Assembly: GCA_964575755.1 (NCBI GenBank) | Contig: CAZNRH010000004.1 | Coordinates: 699 to 64,698, forward strand | Length of the DNA: 64,000 bases | From: an uncultured Candidatus Saccharibacteria bacterium | GTDB taxonomy: Bacteria; Patescibacteriota; Minisyncoccia; Phycocordibacterales; JABMNX01 | Reading direction: 5' to 3' | Part shown: piece by piece, positions 1 through 51,725 of the stretch | Layout of the letters: each line of letters starts with the position of its first letter | How positions within the stretch are numbered: position 1 is the stretch's first letter | Notes under the pieces: model-generated | Told to the model about the DNA's origin: nothing | Databases searched by the model: none | The model's input: only the letters and a program-made list of their open reading frames with translations | Position numbers and translations under genes: made by a program

Positions 1-1054
1 TGTAGGATACACGAATGAAATTGTCGGTTTGGCCGTTACAGCAATTAACGCAGGAATTACGGTTGTTGAAAAAGGATATGTTGATATATCTAGCAAAACC
101 ACTACAAATCAAAATGAAGTAACAACAGGTGTTGTGTCTGGTACTCAGGAAGATGATGGTAGTAATGTTTTAGGTGGTAGTGATGGAGACACTTTGGTTG
201 GTGATACCAAAGTTGACACATTAGCGCCACAAGACGTGAATTTAGGCTACGAAGGGTTAACGGATGAAGAGAAGGAACGTGGAACCTTCTACACTATAGA
301 AGAGTTTCAAAAACTTGATCTTAATAAAATATTTAATATAGTTGTGCCGCCTGCTGTTGACCGTCCAGCTGGCCCTACACCAATACTTGACTTCAATGCT
401 TTTGAAGCCATTTACGGTCAGACATATACAACTTTGTCGTGGTCAAGTAGAAACACAACGCAATGCTCTGGAACGAATTTTGATACTTTTGACAAGACTT
501 CAGGCTCTGTCGATGCTTCACCAAATACCACAACAACCTATTACGTTACCTGCACTGGTTTCGGCGGTTCAATAACAAAAGGTGTAACAGTTGAAGTTAT
601 AGAACTTCCTCTACCCCCGACTCCACCATCTCTCTTTTTTTATGCGACAACAACAGCTGGAGATTCTTCGGTGCTGTCATGGGAGAGTGTCGATGCAACA
701 ATTTGTAATGGCGTGAACTTCAATACAAGAGGAGAGACATCAGGCTCGGTTGAAGTGTCGCAGGGCACAACGACGACTTATTCTATTGTTTGCACAGGAG
801 AAGGTGGTTCTGTAAGTGAAGAGGTTATAGTGAAGGTATATAGTCCAGAGACGAGCATTGAGGTCGTTTCGCTTGGTGGAGGTACGGTCATTACTTGGGC
901 TACCACTGACGTAGAGAATTGTCTGGTATCAGGAACTGATGGATACTCCTATCAAGTACCAGCAGAGTCAGTTGCTTCGGGCTCTGTGGAAGCTGGTTTC
1001 ACTAATCAAGGGGTAACTTATACCATCTCGTGTGATATTTTAGATGGTAGTTAA
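1..1054 (+). CDS. Repeat-containing secreted or surface protein, 5'-partial (reading frame is open to the window edge)
   Basis: Three tandem ~80-aa repeats sharing 'NTTQCSGTNF..TSGSV....TTTTYYVTCTG.GGS' (Ig-like, Thr/Ser-rich). No stop codon upstream of 29 in this frame. Confidence 0.6.
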   Translation, partial: VGYTNEIVGLAVTAINAGITVVEKGYVDISSKTTTNQNEVTTGVVSGTQEDDGSNVLGGSDGDTLVGDTKVDTLAPQDVNLGYEGLTDEEKERGTFYTIEEFQKLDLNKIFNIVVPPAVDRPAGPTPILDFNAFEAIYGQTYTTLSWSSRNTTQCSGTNFDTFDKTSGSVDASPNTTTTYYVTCTGFGGSITKGVTVEVIELPLPPTPPSLFFYATTTAGDSSVLSWESVDATICNGVNFNTRGETSGSVEVSQGTTTTYSIVCTGEGGSVSEEVIVKVYSPETSIEVVSLGGGTVITWATTDVENCLVSGTDGYSYQVPAESVASGSVEAGFTNQGVTYTISCDILDGS

Positions 1055-1172
1055 AATACTCGCAATTTTACATCGATCTGTTGTTTATAAGAAAAGTGTA
1101 TGGGGAGTCAAATAAGATATAAATATCGACACAGAGTGTTGATATTTTTGTTTTTATATTGGTTGTTATGAC

Positions 1173-1646
1173 TTAAAAGCCGAAGAACTCTAAAGCTTTG
1201 TGGAAAATTGGTTCATGTAGCTCTTCTTCATCAAGTTTTGTTAATAACGTATCCCTTATATCCTCTGGGGCTATTGATTCTGTAAGTGGAATAATAATAT
1301 ATGGAGTCATGAGACGTTCTGACTTAAGTATAAGAGAATGGTGTCCGTGTTCGTCTTCATCTATCCAAAACGCTTCAAGTGTTTTAAAAGGATATAGAGT
1401 ATCGTCAATAGAGACTCCGTGTCTGTTTATCTCAAAATGTGTTAGGTGAGGTTTTTTTGCCGCAAATAGGGCGACTGTAAATGCTGCAATGATAATAAGT
1501 AATGCGAACAGGATATTTTTAAATATGATTGCAGTAACAGCGCTTGAGAGTGCGATTATACCTAGCGCCCAAAACCAGTCGCTACTCTTTTCATTGTGGT
1601 CATACTCGTAACCTTGCCAGCTAATTTTTTCTGTTATTGTGTCCAT
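1173..1646 (-). CDS. Membrane protein with two TM helices followed by a bacterial PH-like (YdbS/YdbT-type) domain
   Basis: 157-aa ORF: hydrophobic helices 'WFWALGIIALSSAVTAIIF' and 'ILFALLIIIAAFTVALFAA', then a soluble domain. Confidence 0.45.
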   Translation of the reverse strand: MDTITEKISWQGYEYDHNEKSSDWFWALGIIALSSAVTAIIFKNILFALLIIIAAFTVALFAAKKPHLTHFEINRHGVSIDDTLYPFKTLEAFWIDEDEHGHHSLILKSERLMTPYIIIPLTESIAPEDIRDTLLTKLDEEELHEPIFHKALEFFGF

Positions 1647-1729
1647 GTGAAGAATGGTTTATTTATATAAAATCCGTAATGTATGCATTTATAATATCAC
1701 GTGTGAGTGCGCGCAAGTACTGCTGTTTT

Positions 1730-1981
1730 TCAATGTCGGTCTCTGGACACGATTCCTTGAGAGGAATCGTCTTTTTTCTTTGAAAAATAGTATATGTAAA
1801 ATATTTCAAGAATACCTACGGTGTTTACTATAAGAAGCGCAATAAACCACCACTTGTCTCTGAGTTGTGCTGACTTCCAAAGGGCAAACCCTTTCCACAT
1901 TGTTGTCCATATAATGATTAATAAGACGGCAAAGAGTAATATAATACCGTGTTCGTTTGCAAATAATTCTAATTTGTTCAT
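1730..1981 (-). CDS. Small 2-TM membrane protein
   Basis: 83-aa ORF with two hydrophobic helices. The start codon sits exactly at the end of the CATCCCGTTAGAG inverted-repeat element. Confidence 0.45.
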   Translation of the reverse strand: MNKLELFANEHGIILLFAVLLIIIWTTMWKGFALWKSAQLRDKWWFIALLIVNTVGILEIFYIYYFSKKKDDSSQGIVSRDRH

Positions 1982-2114
1982 CCCGTTAGAGTTAGGACAC
2001 TGATATAGACAATCTTTGTCCTAAAATTAAACTTTTTGTTAAAAATCGACTTTATTCCCCATATATTGTTTCAGTGTCCGACAGTCGTCCATGAACGACT
2101 TATCTCTAACGGGA
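1981..2114. repeat. MITE-like or leader hairpin element with terminal inverted repeats TCCCGTTAGAG / CTCTAACGGGA
   Basis: 11-bp perfect inverted termini at 1981-1991 and 2104-2114, plus an internal hairpin 'aggacactgatatagacaatctttgtcct'. The same termini occur at 41372-41491. Confidence 0.6.
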
Positions 2115-2151
2115 TTCATATACACAGTATACTACTTCTAAACAAAACTGT

Positions 2152-2212
2152 GGGCTACCTCGTGCTGGAACTGTGGGATTCCTTGCCCTGTAAGATTATT
2201 TCACTCTTTTTT
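2152..2212. repeat. Conserved intergenic motif 'GGGCTACCTCGTG...CTGTAAGrTTATTT' (copy 1 of 3)
   Basis: Near-identical 13-mer also at 2823-2832 and 3478-3490, each downstream of a consecutive minus-strand gene. Confidence 0.55.
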
Positions 2213-2251
2213 TGAATATAAATCGAAGGTTCCTCGTGCAAGAATATAAAA

Positions 2252-2719
2252 TCATAAATCTTTTCTCATCTCTATTCTATAATTATAAAAACCAAATTTT
2301 CTCCAAGCCTTAATCCCTATCTTATTTCTTGCGTCTACGCTAAGCTCAATATGTTTGATTTTTTTCTCTTTAAACCATTCTAGTAGCTCATTGAGTAATT
2401 TTTCTCCAATTTTCTTATACCTATAATCTTCTTTAATAAAGGTATCATCAATATTCCCAATCTTTTCAGGCATAATATATGAAGAGGCCTCTAATACTAC
2501 ACCAACAATACGCCCAATGACCTTTCCGTCACCCTCAGCTACAAGCATTCTTACATTCTTATCTTTTAACTGATCTTTCGTGTATTTATCTAATCCTTTG
2601 TATTTAGAAAAGGGTTTGTAATATTTATCTATCTTGTAATGATAATCTGTTACATCTTCAATTAATTCCATTATTTCGTTTAGATCTTTATTTGTAGCTT
2701 TTCTTATGGTGATTTTCAT
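2252..2719 (-). CDS. GNAT-family N-acetyltransferase
   Basis: 155 aa; acetyl-CoA-binding-type segment 'RMLVAEGDGKVIGRIVGVV' and C-terminal 'GIKAWRKFGF'; AGGA Shine-Dalgarno before the ATG. Confidence 0.7.
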   Translation of the reverse strand: MKITIRKATNKDLNEIMELIEDVTDYHYKIDKYYKPFSKYKGLDKYTKDQLKDKNVRMLVAEGDGKVIGRIVGVVLEASSYIMPEKIGNIDDTFIKEDYRYKKIGEKLLNELLEWFKEKKIKHIELSVDARNKIGIKAWRKFGFYNYRIEMRKDL

Positions 2720-2799
2720 ATCCTAATTCTAACGCAGTTAGCAAATTCGCATAGCAAAGTTGTTTACAAGTTACTTCAAGCACACTAAGAAACTATTTT

Positions 2800-2880
2800 C
2801 CTCGTGCTAGCATGATGTGGCAGGCTACCTCGGGGTTGGAACCATAGTCGGTCAACCTCTGTAAGGTTATTTTACTATTT
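2800..2880. repeat. Conserved intergenic motif (copy 2): 'CAGGCTACCTCGG...CTCTGTAAGGTTATTTTACT'
   Basis: Shares the GGCTACCTCG core and the CTGTAAG-TTATTT tail with copies at 2152 and 3478. Confidence 0.55.
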
Positions 2881-2913
2881 TTTCTAATATAAATTTAAGG
2901 TTTTAACAGCTCT

Positions 2914-3462
2914 TTATTCTTCTTTGAATTTAAGCCTTGGCCACTTCTCAAACCACTCTTTCTTTTTTGCTCTTTCTTTAACTAAATCTAATCCTCCTGG
3001 AAATTTAGGGCTTGGTCTTACAACTAAATTAGTTAAATCATCTATTCCGTGTGGAGCTACAAGAGTTAATTTGCCATTTCTTAACCTGACTCCTATACCA
3101 GTGGCTGTCTCTGGCCATCGAGAAATAGCATCCCTCATTGATTTATAAGGAGGTAAATTATTCCATTTGTGAGCATATACTTCATTGACTATTTCCCAAT
3201 CGAAACCCGTCTGGTTACTAAGTTTTTGTGATAATTTTTTGTCGGTTTTCTGATTGGTTTCTTTGGGGTCATAATAAACCAAATCGATATCATTTGTGTC
3301 AACTTTTAAATTTGAATATCCGTGTAAATAATCCCACACTTTATTTCTTATAAATCCACCGCCTATAACCCAATTAGGAAAATTTAGATCTTCTGCAATT
3401 TGCAAGACTTTCATCATCCACTCATCTTTTTTTATTAAATTTAAAATGTCTTGTTCATTCAT
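2914..3462 (-). CDS. Nucleotidyltransferase-family protein (DUF925 / NTP_transf_6-like)
   Basis: 182 aa with 'GGGFIRNKVWDYLHG...DIDLVYYD', pattern typical of minimal nucleotidyltransferases. Confidence 0.55.
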   Translation of the reverse strand: MNEQDILNLIKKDEWMMKVLQIAEDLNFPNWVIGGGFIRNKVWDYLHGYSNLKVDTNDIDLVYYDPKETNQKTDKKLSQKLSNQTGFDWEIVNEVYAHKWNNLPPYKSMRDAISRWPETATGIGVRLRNGKLTLVAPHGIDDLTNLVVRPSPKFPGGLDLVKERAKKKEWFEKWPRLKFKEE

Positions 3463-3477
3463 GTTTTTATACGTTGC

Positions 3478-3545
3478 GGGCTACCTCGTGTGTTCAGACC
3501 GTGGTCGTTAAGGTCAGCAAGGTTCGTTTCAAGCTTTTTAGAATA
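3478..3545. repeat. Conserved intergenic motif (copy 3): 'GCGGGCTACCTCGTGTG...GTTAAGGTCAGCAAGG'
   Basis: Third copy of the GGGCTACCTCGTG 13-mer. Confidence 0.55.
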
Positions 3546-3615
3546 TCATTTCAACGTACCTTGGGCGCCTTATATTTTTTTAAAAAGTTACAAAAGTGAA
3601 ATTTGGGTTATTAGA

Positions 3616-4410
3616 TTACAATTTCTCAATTCTAACTGCATTAAAGGCTCTTAGGATATCTTCTTTTAAGGTTGGAGTATAATCTTTGGTTTCGTTTCCT
3701 TTATCGTCCGAAAGTGCAGTTCCGTTCCCATATAGAACAACATACGTGTTTTTTCCAAGACTAACAACTGCTATGTATCCTCGTAATGTGATAGTTTCAT
3801 ATTCTGTATGTATATCAGTTGGTATAAGGTTGGTATATTTAATATTAAGAGTTGGATTGGATATGTTTAACAGAATAGCAGCACCTTTCATAAGTCGTCT
3901 ACATAGAGAGTTATTGCTTTTGCTACCAACATCACTATGAGATAGGCCACCAGAGAAATCATAAAGTGTGCCTTGGTATCCGTTGATTTGTATCTGTTTG
4001 GAGGACATAATATTTCCTGTAGGCATTTCTATACATGGATTCGGATCGCCAAAATCATACAACCAATTTTTCTGGTCAGCTACAGCTAGACTGAAATGAT
4101 CTTGGAGCGTAAATTCTCTATTCTCTTTAAATTTTACAAGATACGCTCCTAGCCAAGATTGATATTGTTTTGCATTACGATCGTAACGGGAGGAAACACC
4201 GTTTTTGTCTCTTGCCCCCATAGTCCAATGGTTGACTCCCCAAGTCCTAATGCCATGTTTAGCCCAAGAAGGTCCCATATTGAATCTAACTAACCCATTG
4301 ATCCAAGTGTTAGGGATGTTTGTAAATTCAACACGATATCCAATCTTTCTCTCGAGTAGTCGAATATACCAAGAATACATATAACCAATGAATTGTAGAA
4401 TGTTTTTCAT
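3616..4410 (-). CDS. Hypothetical protein; likely start is the internal ATG (MKNILQF...)
   Basis: The long ORF begins at a TTG. The conserved upstream block 'TTTGCTATaCaAATTT..TGCGTTAGAA' that is shared with the GNAT gene sits immediately before the internal ATG at 4410. Confidence 0.5.
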   Translation of the reverse strand: MKNILQFIGYMYSWYIRLLERKIGYRVEFTNIPNTWINGLVRFNMGPSWAKHGIRTWGVNHWTMGARDKNGVSSRYDRNAKQYQSWLGAYLVKFKENREFTLQDHFSLAVADQKNWLYDFGDPNPCIEMPTGNIMSSKQIQINGYQGTLYDFSGGLSHSDVGSKSNNSLCRRLMKGAAILLNISNPTLNIKYTNLIPTDIHTEYETITLRGYIAVVSLGKNTYVVLYGNGTALSDDKGNETKDYTPTLKEDILRAFNAVRIEKL

Positions 4411-4496
4411 ACTTTCTAACGCAACCACTAAATTTGTATAGCAAATTACCTGCAAGCTACTTCAAGCGCCTGAGACCTCATGCCAGCTCTAAGATG

Positions 4497-4580
4497 CGGA
4501 GGAGGTGGGACTCGAACCCACAAGCGGTTTCCCGCGCCTGTTTTCAAGACAGGTCCGTTACCAATTCCGGGCACTCCTCC
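4497..4580 (-). tRNA. tRNA-Ser (anticodon TGA)
   Basis: Cloverleaf read by hand: acceptor GGAGGAG/CTCCTCC, anticodon loop CTTGAAA, long variable arm, T-arm TGGGTTCGAGTCCCA, discriminator G, no encoded CCA. Confidence 0.85.
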
Positions 4581-4608
4581 TTGTCTAGACATGTATCCTA
4601 CCATTAAA

Positions 4609-5085
4609 TCAGCTATTTTTTAAGTGATGTTCCTCTGAGTGACAATTTGGACAAAGTAGTTTTAGGTTTTTCAATTCGTTATTTTCTTTGTTTCTATCTA
4701 TATGATGTACCTCTAATATTTTAGATATATCATAAGTGCACACCTCACATGTTCCACCTCTTTGGTGTAGTAGCCTTATTTTTAAACTCCTTATGTTTTT
4801 GACCTTATCTCTAGGTCTATTGATTTTGTATTTGATGCCTGTTCTGTGTATGTTTGCACATTTCCTACTACATGTTTTTTTATTTGCGCTAGCAAGAATT
4901 AATGTTCTGCAAACGGTACAAGGTTTTTCTTTCCTACAAGAAATTCCATAACAAACTTGTCCACAGAATACTCTACCCCCATTCCTTTCGATCTCAGCAG
5001 GTCTTTTGTATACGGGTTTACTGCAAATTAAGCATTTTGTATTGGGATTTCTTTTATACTCAGTCACTAACCCAGTATACCACAA
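4609..5085 (-). CDS. HNH endonuclease with N-terminal Cys-rich zinc-finger region
   Basis: C-terminal 'VHHIDRNKENNELKNLKLLCPNCH'. Paralog of 13658-14131. Lies next to tRNA-Ser. Confidence 0.8.
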   Translation of the reverse strand: MWYTGLVTEYKRNPNTKCLICSKPVYKRPAEIERNGGRVFCGQVCYGISCRKEKPCTVCRTLILASANKKTCSRKCANIHRTGIKYKINRPRDKVKNIRSLKIRLLHQRGGTCEVCTYDISKILEVHHIDRNKENNELKNLKLLCPNCHSEEHHLKNS

Positions 5086-5122
5086 AAACGTTTCGTGTAA
5101 GTATGTGTTAGGATATAAAAAT

Positions 5123-5539
5123 ATGAAAATTTTAGGAATTGATTATGGAACAAAAAGAGTTGGTATCGCTATTTCTGACGACACGGCTTCTCTTGCGTTC
5201 CCTAAAGCGATATTGAGCAACTCACATACTCTTTTAGATGAAATAAAGTCTATTATTGATAGTAATAAAGTAGAAGAAATTGTTATTGGGCAGTCACTTA
5301 ATACAGAAGGAGAAGAAAATCTGCTAATGGAAGATATTAAAAGGTTTATGACTCACTTAGATGGAAAAGTTAATCTTCCTATGCATCTTGAACCAGAATT
5401 CTTTACTTCAACTGAAGCACATAAGGGTGTAAAGGGTGGGGAGGTAAATCCTCACATGATAGATGCTGCAGCGGCAGCGCTTATACTTCAAAGGTATCTT
5501 GACAGAAGAAATAATAGTAAAAAGCAGGAAGAAAAATAA
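5123..5539 (+). CDS. ruvX: Holliday-junction resolvase-like RuvX/YqgF
   Basis: 'MKILGIDYGTKRVGIAISD' N-terminal signature. Internal ATG at 5123 chosen over the ORF-track start at 5006. Confidence 0.85.
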   Translation: MKILGIDYGTKRVGIAISDDTASLAFPKAILSNSHTLLDEIKSIIDSNKVEEIVIGQSLNTEGEENLLMEDIKRFMTHLDGKVNLPMHLEPEFFTSTEAHKGVKGGEVNPHMIDAAAAALILQRYLDRRNNSKKQEEK

Positions 5540-5564
5540 TAAGTAAAAGGTATAATACATACAT

Positions 5565-5891
5565 ATGATTTCATTTGATGAGTTTAAAAATGTTGAGGTT
5601 AAGATAGGAGAGGTAAAGTCTGCAGAGCGTGTCGAGAATACTGATAAACTAATACGGCTCATGGTTGACGTGGGCGAGGAGGAGGATAGACAGATAGTCT
5701 CTGGTATAGCGCTTTACACTGAAGCAGATGCTCTTGTAGGAAGGAAGTTTCCATTTGTTGTAAATCTTGAGCCACGTGTTATTTGTGGTCTAGAAAGTAA
5801 TGGCATGATTCTAGCCGTCTCATCTAGTGACGGAGAGTTTTCTTTTTTAGAGCCTACATCAGATATTTCTGCTGGAAGTAGTATTGGATAA
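5565..5891 (+). CDS. Stand-alone tRNA-binding (Myf/EMAP-like, CsaA-type) domain protein
   Basis: 'VEVKIGEVKSAERVENTDKLIRLMVDVGE...QIVSGIA' matches the MetRS C-terminal / CsaA tRNA-binding domain. Confidence 0.75.
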   Translation: MISFDEFKNVEVKIGEVKSAERVENTDKLIRLMVDVGEEEDRQIVSGIALYTEADALVGRKFPFVVNLEPRVICGLESNGMILAVSSSDGEFSFLEPTSDISAGSSIG

Positions 5892-12403: not shown

Positions 12404-13069
12404 GTGAATAAACGAGGTCCAAAACCTAAAGAGATAGTTGATACTACATGGTCTCCAAATCTTTCGTATGCTGTTGGATTGCTTGCGAGTGATGGGTGTT
12501 TGTCATGTGATGGACGACACATTGACTTTACCTCAAAGGACAAAGAACAAATTCTAAATTTCCGAAACATACTTAAGTTACATCATATTAAGATTGGTAA
12601 GAAAAGAAACAAGATGGGGAATGAGGCGTATCGCATTCAGTTTGGTAGTATTTTATTTTATCGATGGTTAAATGATATTGGTTTGACTTCAAATAAATCA
12701 AAAACAATTGGTAAATTAAATATTCCGGAAGAGCTCTTTTTTGATTTTTTCCGTGGTGTTTGGGATGGGGACGGTACAATATATGCATATTGGGATCCAA
12801 GATGGAAAAGTAGTTACATGTTTTACATTGGAATAGCATCCGCGAGTAAACCTTTTTTACAATGGTTACAAGATATAATTAGCAAACAGTCGGATGTGTG
12901 TGGGAAAATAACTCTTCATAAGACTTCTGGTACATTTCAATTACGTTTTGCAAAAAAAGAATCAAGAGTGGTTTTTAAAAGGATGTTCTATAAAAATAAT
13001 CTCCCATGTCTTCCTCGGAAGTTTGCAAAAGCACAAAAAATCTTTAAAATAGATGAGGATCATACATAA
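12404..13069 (+). CDS. LAGLIDADG-family homing endonuclease (double-motif, free-standing)
   Basis: Two LAGLIDADG-type motifs, 'VGLLASDGCLS' and 'FFRGVWDGDGTIYA'. Sits between rplS and tRNA-Leu. Confidence 0.75.
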   Translation: MNKRGPKPKEIVDTTWSPNLSYAVGLLASDGCLSCDGRHIDFTSKDKEQILNFRNILKLHHIKIGKKRNKMGNEAYRIQFGSILFYRWLNDIGLTSNKSKTIGKLNIPEELFFDFFRGVWDGDGTIYAYWDPRWKSSYMFYIGIASASKPFLQWLQDIISKQSDVCGKITLHKTSGTFQLRFAKKESRVVFKRMFYKNNLPCLPRKFAKAQKIFKIDEDHT

Positions 13070-13657: not shown

Positions 13658-14131
13658 ATGCCTCTTATTAAACGATGTAAAATTTGTGATAAGGTTTTTC
13701 AAACAAAACCTTTTTTTGTAAACAATGGTGGTGGGAAATATTGTTCAGTAGTATGTCATCACAGGGGTTTACGAAAAGGAAAAGTTGTCAAATGCAATTC
13801 TTGTGATAAAGAAGTTTATAAGTCATTAAAAGCGCTTAAAAATTCAAAAAGTAAAAAATACTTTTGTAGCAAATCTTGTCAAACTAAATGGCGTAATTCT
13901 GAATTCATTGGTTCCAAGCATGCTAATTGGCAACACGGAAAATACTCATACAGGAGTGTATTAGCGAGAAATGGAATTACAAAGATTTGTAATTCATGCA
14001 AAATAAAAGATAGGAGAGTTCTTGCTGTTCATCATATAGACAAAAATAAGTTAAATAATGATGTAGAAAACCTCATGTGGCTATGTCATAATTGTCATTT
14101 CTTAGTACATCATTACAAAGATAAAAAATAA
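13658..14131 (+). CDS. HNH endonuclease with N-terminal Cys-rich zinc-finger region (paralog of 4609-5085)
   Basis: 'LAVHHIDKNKLNNDVENLMWLCHNCH'. N-terminal CxxC pairs align with the other HNH gene. Confidence 0.8.
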   Translation: MPLIKRCKICDKVFQTKPFFVNNGGGKYCSVVCHHRGLRKGKVVKCNSCDKEVYKSLKALKNSKSKKYFCSKSCQTKWRNSEFIGSKHANWQHGKYSYRSVLARNGITKICNSCKIKDRRVLAVHHIDKNKLNNDVENLMWLCHNCHFLVHHYKDKK

Positions 14132-41371: not shown

Positions 41372-41491
41372 ATCCCGTTAGAGACCGCGGTCACGTAGGA
41401 TATAATCAAAAATATGAAAATGAGTCGAAAACAAATTTATAAGACAATAATCAGACAAGTTCGCACGACCGCGACCTGTCTCTAATGGGAT
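41372..41491. repeat. Second copy of the TCCCGTTAGAG inverted-repeat element; its 3' arm ends in the ssb start codon
   Basis: 'atcccgttagagaccgcggtc ... gaccgcgacctgtctctaatgggATG'. Confidence 0.6.
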
Positions 41492-49373: not shown

Positions 49374-51725
49374 TTACTTAACAACGCCTTTGGGCGCGAT
49401 TTCTTCTGAGGAATCGTCGTCATCTTCATATAATTCTTCCTCTTCAGATGGGAGTTCGTCACCTGTCCCGTTAGAAGTAGACTCGTCAGAGTCGTCAGTT
49501 CTAACGGGATCGGTTTCGTCAACGTCGTCTCCGGACGTGATTTCTTCTGAGAAATCATCGTGGTCGTCAAGAACCTCACGTGGTTTTGAGCCGTTTGCTG
49601 GGCCTATTACTCCTCTGTCTTCAAGCATATCCATTAAGCGTGCTGCACGAGCATAACCTACACGCAACTTTCGTTGTAGGTATGATGTTGAGGCTTTTCC
49701 TGCTTCGATAATTACGCGATATGCGTCGTCGTACAGAGCATCTTCTTGCTCATCTTGATCATCGAGAGTTGCGGAGAACATGGCAGGGTCTCCACTGGTT
49801 TCAGTGAAATCTATTTCACTTGGTAATTCATTTTCGTAACTCTTAATCAAGAACGAAGACACTTTCTTTAATTCTGTTTCTGTTATAAATGGAGATTGTA
49901 TTCGTAGTGGTTTAGACATTTCTCCTGAAAGGAAGAGCATATCTCCTGCACCAAGAAGCTTCTCTGCACCTCCTGTGTCGAGAATGGTTCGTGAGTCTAT
50001 CTGCGAAGATACTTGTAAGGCGATGCGTGTTGGTATGTTGGCTTTAATAAGTCCTGTAATAACCTGCACTGAAGGCCTTTGTGTTGAAAGTATTAAATGA
50101 ATTCCTACTGCACGACTCATTTGTGCAAGACGTACTATGGCACTCTCGAGCTCTCGTGGATATGCTTGCATTATGTCTGCAAGCTCGTCGATAATAAGTA
50201 CAATATACGGCATTGGTTCTGGTACCTCGTCTTCTGGCAAGTCTTTGTCGACTGATGGCGCGACTATGTTCTTGTGATAAGAAGATATGTCTCGCACTGA
50301 GGCTTCTTCTAATATGTCGTAGCGCCTATCCATCTCATTTGCGAGCCATTTGAGGGCTAAGATAGTCTTCTTAGCATTAGTTATTACAGGAGTGAGTAGG
50401 TGTGGAATGTTTTTGTATAGAGTTAATTCGACACGTTTTGGATCAACTAAGATAAGTCGCATGTCTTGTGGTGACTTGCGGTAGATAAGTGACATAACTA
50501 CATTGTGAATCATGACTGATTTACCTGATCCAGTTGCTCCGGCAATAAGAAGGTGAGGCATCTTCGCTAAATCATAGAAATGTGAGTTACCGACAATGTC
50601 GCGGCCGAGACCTATGAGCAGTGACTTATCTGAGTTCTGGTACTCATCATTTGCTAATAGGGAAGCGAGTCCTACCATAGCTTTAGACTTGTTTGGTATT
50701 TCAATGCCAACGAGTGACTTGCCTGGTATTGGTGCTTCTATGCGTACTGGATATGCTGCGAGTGCGAGCTCTAGATTGTTTTGAAGTGTGAGAATTTTAG
50801 AAAGTCTAACTCCTTCGGCTGGTTTGAGTGTGTAGCGAGTTACTGTCGGACCGATAGAAACTTCATCCATCTCTACTTGTATGCCAAAGTTTTGTAGCGT
50901 GCGTTTTATGATGTTGGCATTTGCTTTTACGTCTCCCACGTCTGGCTTTCCTTTATCCTTTTCAAGTAGTGACAGGGGAGGGGGAGTGTACTCTCCAAAC
51001 GATGCATATGTATTTATTTTAGGATCTTTTTTGCCGAAACCGAGTAGACCTTTTAATCCACCAGCGCCTTCTTCTTCGTCTTCAGTTTCTTCTTCGTCGT
51101 ATTCCTCCTCCTCTGCATCTTCATCGCCTCCGGGCGCGATTTCTTGCGAGAAATCGTCATCTTCTTCGTACGCTTCTTCCTCGGCGTCATCCTCGTAGTA
51201 TTTCTCCTCTTCAGTATCTTTTCGTTTGAAGACATTCAAGAATGAAAAACTTGGCAGGAAGTCGAACATAATAACAAGAGACAATATAATAAGCACAACG
51301 AGCATAAGTACAGATGCATATACATCGAGTAATGCAACAATAGGGGACGATACGAAACCTCCTATTATTCCAGCACTTCCTTTAAATGCTATATCTATAA
51401 TTCCTAAACTTGAGAGTATAAATACTCCTGCGCTCACGTTCTTTAGTGTGCCGTATGCATGTTCGTATGAACGAAAGAATGAAATTGCTATGAAAAATAG
51501 AACGATAGGTAATAAGAAGTATCCAACACCAAAGAGAGTGGAGAGACTGTTGAATGTAGCTCGCCCTGCTATACCTGCGATATTAAATGCGGACAGTATA
51601 AAAAAGAGTGTGATAAATAGGAATACGATACCCCAAATACCACGTACAGTTTCTTCTTTCAGGTCTTCAAATATGTTACTAATTGCAAGATCTTTTTTAT
51701 TTCCTTTTTTCTTTTTTTTAGCCAT
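49374..51725 (-). CDS. ftsK: DNA translocase FtsK/SpoIIIE
   Basis: N-terminal TM segments, acidic linker, motor domain 'LIAGATGSGKSVMIHNVVMSL', gamma domain '...STSYLQRKLRVGYARAARLMDMLE', then an extra acidic C-terminal tail. Confidence 0.92.
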   Translation of the reverse strand: MAKKKKKGNKKDLAISNIFEDLKEETVRGIWGIVFLFITLFFILSAFNIAGIAGRATFNSLSTLFGVGYFLLPIVLFFIAISFFRSYEHAYGTLKNVSAGVFILSSLGIIDIAFKGSAGIIGGFVSSPIVALLDVYASVLMLVVLIILSLVIMFDFLPSFSFLNVFKRKDTEEEKYYEDDAEEEAYEEDDDFSQEIAPGGDEDAEEEEYDEEETEDEEEGAGGLKGLLGFGKKDPKINTYASFGEYTPPPLSLLEKDKGKPDVGDVKANANIIKRTLQNFGIQVEMDEVSIGPTVTRYTLKPAEGVRLSKILTLQNNLELALAAYPVRIEAPIPGKSLVGIEIPNKSKAMVGLASLLANDEYQNSDKSLLIGLGRDIVGNSHFYDLAKMPHLLIAGATGSGKSVMIHNVVMSLIYRKSPQDMRLILVDPKRVELTLYKNIPHLLTPVITNAKKTILALKWLANEMDRRYDILEEASVRDISSYHKNIVAPSVDKDLPEDEVPEPMPYIVLIIDELADIMQAYPRELESAIVRLAQMSRAVGIHLILSTQRPSVQVITGLIKANIPTRIALQVSSQIDSRTILDTGGAEKLLGAGDMLFLSGEMSKPLRIQSPFITETELKKVSSFLIKSYENELPSEIDFTETSGDPAMFSATLDDQDEQEDALYDDAYRVIIEAGKASTSYLQRKLRVGYARAARLMDMLEDRGVIGPANGSKPREVLDDHDDFSEEITSGDDVDETDPVRTDDSDESTSNGTGDELPSEEEELYEDDDDSSEEIAPKGVVK

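Follow-up and report, generated by a model that had tools for sequence, protein, structure and literature searches.

Introduction

Integrons and islands that target transfer RNA (tRNA) genes are the described systems closest to the locus reported here, an array of three small genes and repeated intergenic modules that adjoins the 3' end of a tRNA-Ser(tga) gene in an uncultured Candidatus Saccharibacteria bacterium. The array lies on the minus strand, between positions 1982 and 4496 of a 64,000-nucleotide stretch of DNA (GenBank assembly GCA_964575755.1, contig CAZNRH010000004.1, positions 699 to 64,698 of the forward strand), which is called the window throughout, and its genes are bordered by a 5' module, Y, and a 3' module, X. 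As in integrons, small accessory open reading frames (ORFs) are stacked one way, a conserved repeat runs from each stop codon, cargo is shared between arrays and the recombination functions would lie outside the cassettes. The array differs from integrons in that it has no intI gene, no attC R''/R' cores and no folded single-stranded DNA (ssDNA) hairpin spanning the repeat; moreover, its anchor is the 3' end of tRNA-Ser and not attI, its cassettes bring their own -10 box, and its palindrome is located 5' of the gene and not across the 3' repeat.

Genomic islands that target tRNA genes are known under the Islander concept (PMC4383910), and in the tycheposon-built islands of Prochlorococcus partial tRNAs mark repeated integrations while integrase-less remnants accumulate (bioRxiv 10.1101/2020.12.28.424599). 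The present locus shares with these elements the insertion at a tRNA 3' end, the full or partial tRNA copies at junctions, the outward displacement of older insertions by newer ones and a hotspot, variable among relatives, in which remnants without an integrase and cargo modules build up. Tycheposons, however, carry their own integrase and replication genes, whereas the units described here are single-gene units of about 0.6-1.2 kb with neither gene type. In contrast with tRNA-targeting islands in general, the array has standardised 5' and 3' modules, its junction consists of a 20-24-nt trailer site and an X end and not of a plain tRNA fragment, and its host belongs to the Candidate Phyla Radiation (CPR).

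In the Xer-dependent pdif modules of Acinetobacter plasmids and in integrative mobile elements exploiting Xer (IMEX), gene modules between short palindromic sites are mobilised in trans by a host recombinase. The sites described below differ from those in that they are not dif-like, form direct repeats and are linked to tRNA genes. The genomes of the CPR bacteria, or Patescibacteria, are tiny and few mobile elements have been recognised in them, so that the acquisition of accessory genes by this group is poorly understood, and no description of such cassettes in CPR was found in the literature.

Results

Two modules border the genes of the array

A preliminary description of the window had proposed that one motif follows each gene of a minus-strand run. 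The 10-mer GGCTACCTCG is indeed present in three exact copies, at 2153, 2823 and 3479 of the plus strand, with no further exact copy in the 64 kb; when one mismatch was allowed, five matches were obtained in the window against 1.15 expected. Exact copies of the longer 13-mer GGGCTACCTCGTG are located at 2152 and 3478, and the middle copy (2822-2834) reads AGGCTACCTCGGG, with 11 of 13 positions conserved. The tail CTGTAAGrTTATTTyACT, reported for two copies, was recovered at 2188 and 2859 within a 44-nt repeat of 84% identity, and four of the six CACGAGG heptamers of the window are found in the array locus, all four on the gene strand. The motif comes after the genes for a 264-aa protein, a nucleotidyltransferase and a GNAT acetyltransferase, but not, as had been supposed, after the DUF5652 gene, which belongs to the native flank.

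Alignment of the four intergenic regions in gene orientation revealed the two modules. On the gene strand the motif reads CACGAGGTAGCCC and forms the 3' end of X, a module of ~92 nt (consensus TAAGGCGCACGAGGA-ACCTTCGATTTATATTCTGAAAAATAGTTAAAATAACCTTACAGGGCTTGACCGACCACGGTTCCAGCACGAGGTAGCCCGC) which sits 3' of the ORF and starts at or near the cargo stop codon. X terminates in ...GGTTCCAGCACGAGGTAGCCCGC, with ..GTAGCCCGC as its end sequence, and the motif as first noticed is the reverse complement of this end. Further direct copies of an inner box, GC(A/G)C(A/T)CGAGG, are located at the start and at the end of X and could be accessory binding sites. Each of the three co-oriented ORFs is followed by a copy of X (Table 1). 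The first copy runs directly into the nucleotidyltransferase ATG without any Y, and the third closes the inserted array at its distal end.

The block said to be shared by the upstream regions of the GNAT gene and of the 3616-4410 gene was recovered by nhmmer on the minus strand at 2725-2811 (E 2e-17) and 4412-4496 (E 1e-20), and corresponds to module Y, which lies 5' of the ORF with the consensus CATCTTAGAGCTAGCACGAGGAAGCTATGTTCCTTGAGCGCTCGAAGTACCTTGTAGGCAATTTGCTATACAAATTTATTGGTTGCGATAGAATAAAAAT, then ATG. Y is made of a junction site that begins at the last tRNA-Ser bases (CCGC followed by ATCTTAGAGCTAGCACGAGG), of the other arm of a palindrome and of a -10-like box. The first Y copy starts one base past the 3' end of tRNA-Ser (..CTCCGC, then ATCTTAGAGC..).

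The junction site is part of an imperfect palindrome

The consensus 20-mer of the site, ATCTTAGAGCTAGCACGAGG, was drawn from 17 independent loci (loci and contigs are designated throughout by L and a number). The complete site, (CCGC)ATCTTAGAGCTAGCACGAGG-WAG-CTAT, constitutes the left arm and the centre of an imperfect palindrome of ~47 bp, which is laid out as CTTAGAGC-TA-GCACGAGGAAG (left arm, the 20-mer), CTAT and CTTCCTCGTGC-GCTCGAAG (right arm). When the inverted repeat was folded as DNA, nine of ten copies from other loci gave z scores of -1.9 to -7.5 and the tenth, from L100, gave -1.88; in the L111 subfamily, matching changes are present in both arms (GAGACA / TGTTTC).

To the left of the site there is always a tRNA-Ser-type end or an X end, mostly ..CCGC. 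To its right, conservation ends just past CTAT, the centre of the palindrome, and the sequence continues either as the right arm and the remaining Y, as an unrelated promoter (L095, L097, L104, L106, L003), as a terminator (L109, L110) or as a tRNA T-loop fragment (L101, L113). Such a stop at the palindrome centre would be the pattern of a recombinase core site with a crossover near its centre. At L110, tRNA-Ser(gct) is followed by the site and then by a terminator, without any cassette, which makes this locus a candidate empty attachment site. The use of L109 and L110 as an occupied/empty pair was abandoned, since their similarity reaches only about 75 nt past the site and they are therefore different loci.

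In the window itself the partner palindrome arm of the first site is internally deleted (DNA fold z +0.8), and the second Y copy holds a decayed site, ATCATGCTAGCACGAGG (2800-2816), with a weak palindrome (z -1.6). As the sites of the window are mutated or deleted, the array is probably fossilised.

The modules recur in other Patescibacteria

When 185,579 genomes, one per species, were scanned for the tRNA trailer with the core (ATCTTAGAGCNNGCAYGAGG), 15 loci were obtained. Ten belong to Patescibacteria-type contigs (from Kaiserbacteria, Paceibacterota and Saccharibacteria-labelled bins), where ATCTTAGAGCTAGCACGAGG comes after the ...CCGC of a tRNA-Ser, of an X end or of a displaced 3' fragment of tRNA-Ser; the flanks of the other five show no similarity, and these look like matches by chance. 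Seven additional metagenome loci were found with the exact 20-mer, and iterated nhmmer profiles recovered, over 18 loci, about 22 copies of X and 24 of Y or the site, full or partial. X and Y border unrelated accessory genes in about 15 other Patescibacteria contigs, always co-directionally, according to a single grammar in which tRNA-Ser or X is followed on one strand by a site or Y, one or more ORFs, X, and again a site or Y. X usually begins no more than about 15 nt from the stop codon, the first three positions of its profile often being the stop itself, and most full-length copies of Y extend to the start codon. The cargo includes RelB/YafQ toxin-antitoxin, ASCH, Amidase_2, PyrD, RidA, a metallo-beta-lactamase-fold hydrolase, HD_3, SET, ABM, DUF5677, a peroxiredoxin-like protein, a peptidoglycan (PG)-binding protein and several unknowns.

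The modules are usually located behind a tRNA-Ser gene or a displaced 3' fragment of one. An intact tRNA-Ser (tga, gga or gct) heads the arrays of the window, L097, L100, L101, L104, L106, L110 and L113, and a tRNA-Ser profile located displaced 3' fragments of this tRNA in L003, L095, L101, L104, L106 and L120, directly before sites in, for example, L003 (476-510), L095 (7892-7913) and L104 (7124-7142). The same profile detected no such fragment in 1982-4495 of the window, where an X end holds that position. By eye, the 3' half of X could be taken for a decayed tRNA-Ser 3' half (GGTTC.A...CCGC); this idea was dropped because the profile that finds true fragments misses X, and we only retain that X occupies the position of a tRNA-Ser 3' end.

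Searches among phages and plasmids gave no related sequence. The 20-mer had no match in IMG/VR, and the X-Y block gave nothing by blastn against PLSDB and INPHARED. A phage or plasmid attP was also looked for with the X-b 17-mer, which gave four chance matches, and GCACGAGGTAGYCCRC gave 84 matches in viral contigs, each of them single and in unrelated, mostly high-GC coding sequence; both candidates were rejected.

The array is inserted at a tRNA-Ser hotspot

Syntenic contigs (n = 5) were identified through proteins 66-74% identical to the PilM of the window. On one side all five retain RuvX, tRNA_bind, VTT and PilM, on the other the gene for a 157-aa membrane protein, and the content of the interval between tRNA-Ser and the 157-aa gene varies among them. 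In L116 and L121, a short spacer leads to DUF5652, without X, Y or site; L118/L119 have a single unrelated ORF of about 115 aa; in L120, about 200 nt lead to a displaced tRNA 3' fragment; and in L122 a 187-aa gene, HEPN_AbiU2 and DUF5677 precede DUF5652. In the window the interval reads Y, 264-aa gene, X, nucleotidyltransferase, X, Y, GNAT, X, then DUF5652. Since tRNA-Ser stands directly before DUF5652 in L116 and L121, the 264-aa, nucleotidyltransferase and GNAT genes are an insertion; on this comparison, the three genes and their modules represent a lineage-specific insertion of ~2.5 kb at the last base of tRNA-Ser, with the intact tRNA at one end of DNA that both relatives lack. The inserts of L118 and L122 are without X or Y, and the hotspot is therefore independent of the modules. 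The three genes in L122 (6369-8559, minus strand; Kaiserbacteria) are defence-like, and the L111 array likewise includes a DUF5677 gene as a cassette.

The GC content of the array (34.9%, against a mean of 38.3% for the whole stretch; 11th lowest of 123 segments) is no more than suggestive.

Cassettes recur as units with other neighbours

Two of the three cargo genes, those for the 264-aa protein and GNAT, recur elsewhere with flanking modules and other neighbours. On the metagenome contig L003 a homologue of the 264-aa protein (80% aa identity) is flanked by YafQ and ASCH. DUF6176, DUF2268, RelB, YafQ, the homologue and ASCH follow one another there on a single strand, and the same core sequences separate them. 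The alignable stretch of the window and L003 begins at the boundary between GAGG and TC.. (window ~4478), covers the 264-aa ORF and includes the first ~25 nt of X; its neighbours on both sides are different.

The GNAT protein is 81% identical to one encoded beside the Obg GTPase gene in a Giovannonibacteria contig (L127). The segment made of the 3' part of Y, GNAT and X shows 75-92% nucleotide identity with L127, in blocks across the gene, and the similarity stops at the X end and at the site. At L128, a 79%-identical GNAT belongs to a five-gene run closed by a single X and a Y-like module, from which it follows that cassettes can hold several genes; the stretch of the window with the 264-aa gene, X and the nucleotidyltransferase may also be a multi-gene cassette.

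Each cassette appears to carry its own promoter

The preliminary description had also considered that the motif might be a shared promoter or operator. The idea of a shared promoter is partly right, in that the last ~20 nt of the upstream block hold a -10-like TAGAAT located 6 nt ahead of the ATG. A hexamer (TAGAAT, TAGGAT or TATAAT) ends at exactly this distance from the ATG in most Y copies, and this spacing holds in window copy 2, in two copies each from L098 and L105, and in L003, L127 and L128. A like layout precedes RuvX (5100-5125) and is found near ssb (41395-41417) in the window. With normal sigma-70 geometry, a hexamer at this distance would place the transcription start at the A of the ATG, and each cassette is thus predicted to produce a leaderless mRNA. 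Cassettes without a full Y have TATAAT boxes of their own. The cassettes appear to be self-expressed, unlike most integron cassettes.

Search for a recombinase

No tyrosine (box II) or serine recombinase motif was found by a regular-expression screen of window ORFs of at least 90 aa. The island of the window contains no integrase and holds only the 264-aa, NTP_transf_6 and GNAT genes. Pfam analysis of the window neighbours and of 10 suitably sized candidate ORFs did not reveal any recombinase, the ten being ordinary genes; and, again by Pfam and for some sets among the matches listed, a tyrosine or large serine recombinase and a replication module are absent from the window array and from the cassettes of related loci. 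Two candidates were discarded: a motif match in L114 was due to a spurious ORF, and a RAYT-like tail in L098 (7087-7377) had no Pfam support. A cassette-type array beside a tRNA gene, with neither integrase nor canonical attC, had been proposed from the start and is borne out by the present data.

Layout of the locus

As shown in Table 1, the minus-strand order is tRNA-Ser(tga), 264-aa gene, NTP_transf_6, GNAT, DUF5652 and 157-aa membrane protein. The final bases of tRNA-Ser (..CTCCGC) adjoin the junction site, and a gene for an HNH endonuclease is located on the far side of the tRNA from the array. Type IV pilus genes (PilM and its neighbours) are also encoded in the window.

Table 1. Features of the tRNA-Ser-anchored array and of its flanks, in minus-strand order
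Feature	Position in window	Strand	Evidence and remarks
tRNA-Ser(tga)	4496-4580	-	ARAGORN; Rfam tRNA 52.6 bits; tRNA-Ser profile E 2e-16; array anchor
Y copy 1	4411-4496	-	nhmmer Y positions 1-95, E 1.3e-20; site, spacer and -10-like box, upstream of 264-aa gene
Junction site copy 1	4476-4495	-	ATCTTAGAGCTGGCATGAGG; 2 mismatches to consensus 20-mer ATCTTAGAGCTAGCACGAGG
Cargo gene 1, 264-aa protein	3616-4410	-	well-conserved family of CPR bacteria and DPANN archaea, 76 homologues, without Pfam family
X copy 1	3470-3572	-	nhmmer X positions 1-91, E 7.5e-16; motif at 3478-3490
Cargo gene 2, NTP_transf_6 nucleotidyltransferase	2914-3462	-	Pfam PF06042, E 5.1e-50
X copy 2	2814-2916	-	nhmmer X positions 16-91, E 3.1e-15; variant motif 2822-2834; degenerate 5' core
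Y copy 2	2720-2816	-	nhmmer Y positions 10-95, E 2.2e-17; upstream of GNAT gene
Cargo gene 3, GNAT acetyltransferase	2252-2719	-	Pfam PF00583, E 2.1e-15
X copy 3	2144-2245	-	nhmmer X positions 6-91, E 3.9e-18; motif 2152-2164
DUF5652 small membrane protein	1730-1981	-	Pfam PF18893, E 9e-22; native flank, no cassette
157-aa membrane protein	1173-1646	-	

The 264-aa protein was modelled by AlphaFold2 with a pLDDT of 96.7 and a pTM of 0.93. The fold matches of this model were weak, the PsbP/LpqN/MTC28-like proteins giving TM scores of about 0.35 for the query and 0.5 for the target, and neither a sequence match in the PDB nor a defence-system match was obtained. A homologue in Yanofskybacteria adjoins an Exo_endo_phos gene, without X or Y.

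Neighbouring structures, endonucleases and tRNA alleles

Directly upstream of the DUF5652 ATG, a strongly structured stretch of ~135 nt was observed (1982-2115, minus strand; RNA minimum free energy -48.3 kcal/mol, z -5.2), whose closing helix AUCCCGUUAGAG/CUCUAACGGGAU adjoins the AUG. Directly upstream of the ssb ATG at 41490, ~120 nt (41372-41491, plus strand) lie between the arms of the same 12-nt inverted pair and contain a TAGGATATAAT box and a 23-codon ORF; a short third inverted pair is present at 49465-49510. The DUF5652 upstream stretch had no Rfam match, only this first copy having been scanned, and L116 and L121 lack it upstream of their DUF5652 genes. It could be a regulatory hairpin that occludes the start codon or an insert resembling a miniature inverted-repeat transposable element (MITE).

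Three free-standing genes of homing-endonuclease type lie beside tRNA genes in the window: the HNH gene next to tRNA-Ser (4609-5085, minus strand) and two others at 12404-13069 and 13658-14131 (plus strand). Among them, a paralogous HNH gene (33% identity over the full length) is found just after tRNA-His, and a LAGLIDADG_3 gene ends 3 nt before tRNA-Leu. In L101, a GIY-YIG ORF is present before tRNA-Ser. The window and L118/L119 combine the HNH gene with an unusual tRNA-Ser(tga) allele (D arm GCCCGGAATTGGTAACGG), and L116, L120, L121 and L122, which have no HNH gene, carry another allele (GGCTGAGTGGTCGAAGGC); gene and allele may have been acquired together.

Other small repeats were noticed around tRNA-Ser genes. 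A 17-18-nt copy of the tRNA-Ser 5' end (GGAGAGGTGGCTGAGTGG) occurs 130-160 nt upstream of the intact tRNA-Ser on the minus strand of L120 (8429-8465) and L122 (8793-8829), which suggests a second kind of small insertion on the 5' side. Downstream of tRNA-Ser genes, a conserved element of the form GGGATTCGAAAGCCGGAG...GGGGTCGAGAG...ACTTAGCAACTCGTGACCGAATCCC, with copies of the tRNA T arm, inverted and direct, at its ends, was seen at L100 (~3150-2960, minus strand), L120 (~8180-8040, minus strand), L106 (~3270-3150, minus strand) and L003 (1-110). In L002 (700-2740), the contig of a 73% homologue, a different intergenic module recurs by a tRNA gene with the anticodon CCA: the sequence ahead of each gene shows ..CCGCCAA.A.CCACCTCG, then a hairpin and, about 8 nt from the ATG, TTTTTTGGTATA(A/G)T. 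In view of this module, other lineages may have cassette-boundary modules of their own.

Discussion

The modules and their grammar, their link with tRNA-Ser, the insertion relative to syntenic contigs and the reuse of two cargo genes are observed in the sequences compared. We interpret the locus, with moderate confidence, as an integron-like cassette array anchored at tRNA-Ser, exchanged among Patescibacteria, served in trans by a recombinase and partly decayed in this genome. Our confidence is greater as regards mobile cassettes with standard boundary modules and smaller as regards the mechanism. On this reading the array was inserted exactly at the 3' end of tRNA-Ser(UGA), in the same direction as the tRNA, and each cassette comprises one or a few cargo ORFs between the 5' module Y and the 3' module X of ~92 nt. 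Since the X end is in the same position as the tRNA-Ser 3' end, the array takes the form of tRNA-Ser followed by site-Y-gene-X, then by a further site-Y-gene-X, and so on. Site-specific recombination at the palindromic site, with a crossover putatively near its centre, would bring cassettes in and out, and the reaction would be catalysed by a recombinase encoded elsewhere and acting in trans, which we regard as the most likely mechanism.

Several points weigh against this interpretation. A recombinase was not found by the motif screen of the window and of all 8-kb loci, nor by Pfam on 66 + 30 ORFs, and this negative is a weak one given that the loci are short (8 kb) and that one Pfam set comprised the top 25 families listed. 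Neither a circular or excised form nor a strict empty/occupied pair within one species was seen. Several 20-mer copies are without the right palindrome arm, two of the three X copies of the window have no recognisable site after them, and both sites of the window are degenerate. X is not detectably tRNA-derived according to the tRNA-Ser profile, and the hotspot genes of L122 and L118 carry neither X nor Y. Finally, the sample is small, with about 20 contigs which are mostly fragments of metagenome-assembled genomes (MAGs).

The main rival explanation dispenses with a dedicated recombinase. X and Y would then be expression signals, the former tRNA trailer- or terminator-like and the latter a leaderless promoter, which travel with genes and, being conserved, can serve as homology arms, and cassettes would be swapped by homologous recombination after DNA uptake, possibly stimulated by breaks from HNH, GIY-YIG or LAGLIDADG endonucleases. 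The failure of a recombinase to turn up near any array speaks for this scenario, as do the type IV pilus genes of the window, the resemblance of the Y 3' end to the promoter layout of RuvX and ssb, the HNH genes flanking tRNA-Ser and tRNA-His, the LAGLIDADG gene flanking tRNA-Leu, the GIY-YIG ORF before tRNA-Ser in L101 and the capacity of the hotspot to take DNA without X or Y (L118, L122). We nevertheless judge it rather unlikely. The site of 20-24 nt is identical across Patescibacteria lineages and the sequence changes abruptly at the palindrome centre, and an identical site with an abrupt change at one point is better accounted for by a site-specific crossover than by homologous exchange. 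Displaced tRNA-Ser 3' fragments are moreover the classical scar of integrase-type recombination, and X is devoid of a terminator hairpin.

The contiguous X-Y block of about 225 nt present in L105, L098 and L111 recalls a small non-autonomous element of the MITE or repetitive extragenic palindromic (REP) type, or a structured non-coding RNA (ncRNA), placed between pre-existing and immobile genes. Such an explanation is highly improbable, given that genes and modules are missing together from syntenic relatives and move together. The copies are also not dispersed as REP sequences, bacterial interspersed mosaic elements (BIMEs) or MITEs would be, all X and Y copies of the 64 kb being confined to 2144-4496, and there are no terminal inverted repeats around the X-Y block. 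As to a structured element, riboswitch or other cis-regulatory RNA, which had been put forward for the motif, single-sequence folds of its copies gave z scores between -0.6 and +0.9, RNAalifold on 15 X copies found 0 pairs on the gene strand and a 4-bp invariant hairpin without covariation on the other, and cmscan against Rfam 15 (E up to 10) matched only the tRNA in 1000-5600; this proposal was rejected. Even less credit can be given to the remnant of a classical integron (cluster of attC sites lacking integron-integrases, CALIN), in which the motif would be the attC of an IntI integrase. The genes are, as it requires, co-oriented, small and accessory, and a repeat starting at the stop codon comes after each ORF. 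But no RYYYAAC...GTTRRRY pair exists on either strand of 1982-4495 (shuffles average 0.48), ssDNA folds of the whole intergenic stretch 2720-2913 have z scores of +0.31 and -0.28, no intI-like gene was found, each cassette has its own -10 box and the anchor is a tRNA gene and not attI. As the core-pair scan and the ssDNA folds were negative, the attC-like site that had been envisaged was rejected, and under the canonical definition a CALIN is already refuted.

The reading as a tRNA-Ser-anchored cassette array served in trans can be extended, more tentatively and as a possibility that we would not yet defend, to a hitherto undescribed gene-capture platform of the Patescibacteria. The 3' end and trailer of tRNA-Ser would be its docking point, the ~47-bp palindrome the place of crossover and the ~92-nt X a required accessory arm; promoter-bearing single-gene cassettes would be put in and excised by a chromosomal recombinase acting in trans or by tRNA-adjacent homing endonucleases, and the whole would be a functional analogue of the integron, of independent origin in these very small and streamlined bacteria.

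If the cassette reading is true, the format of site, promoter, ORF and X would be a concrete route of gene flow among Patescibacteria lineages. Signatures for mapping the flexible gene pool in MAGs would be available in the profiles of X and Y and in the 20-24-nt site, and would open a co-occurrence search for the responsible recombinase. In annotation, the cassette format would account for conserved "intergenic repeats" that might be mistaken for ncRNAs. The array would represent, beside integrons and tycheposon-type islands, a third architecture in which cargo is split from the recombination machinery.

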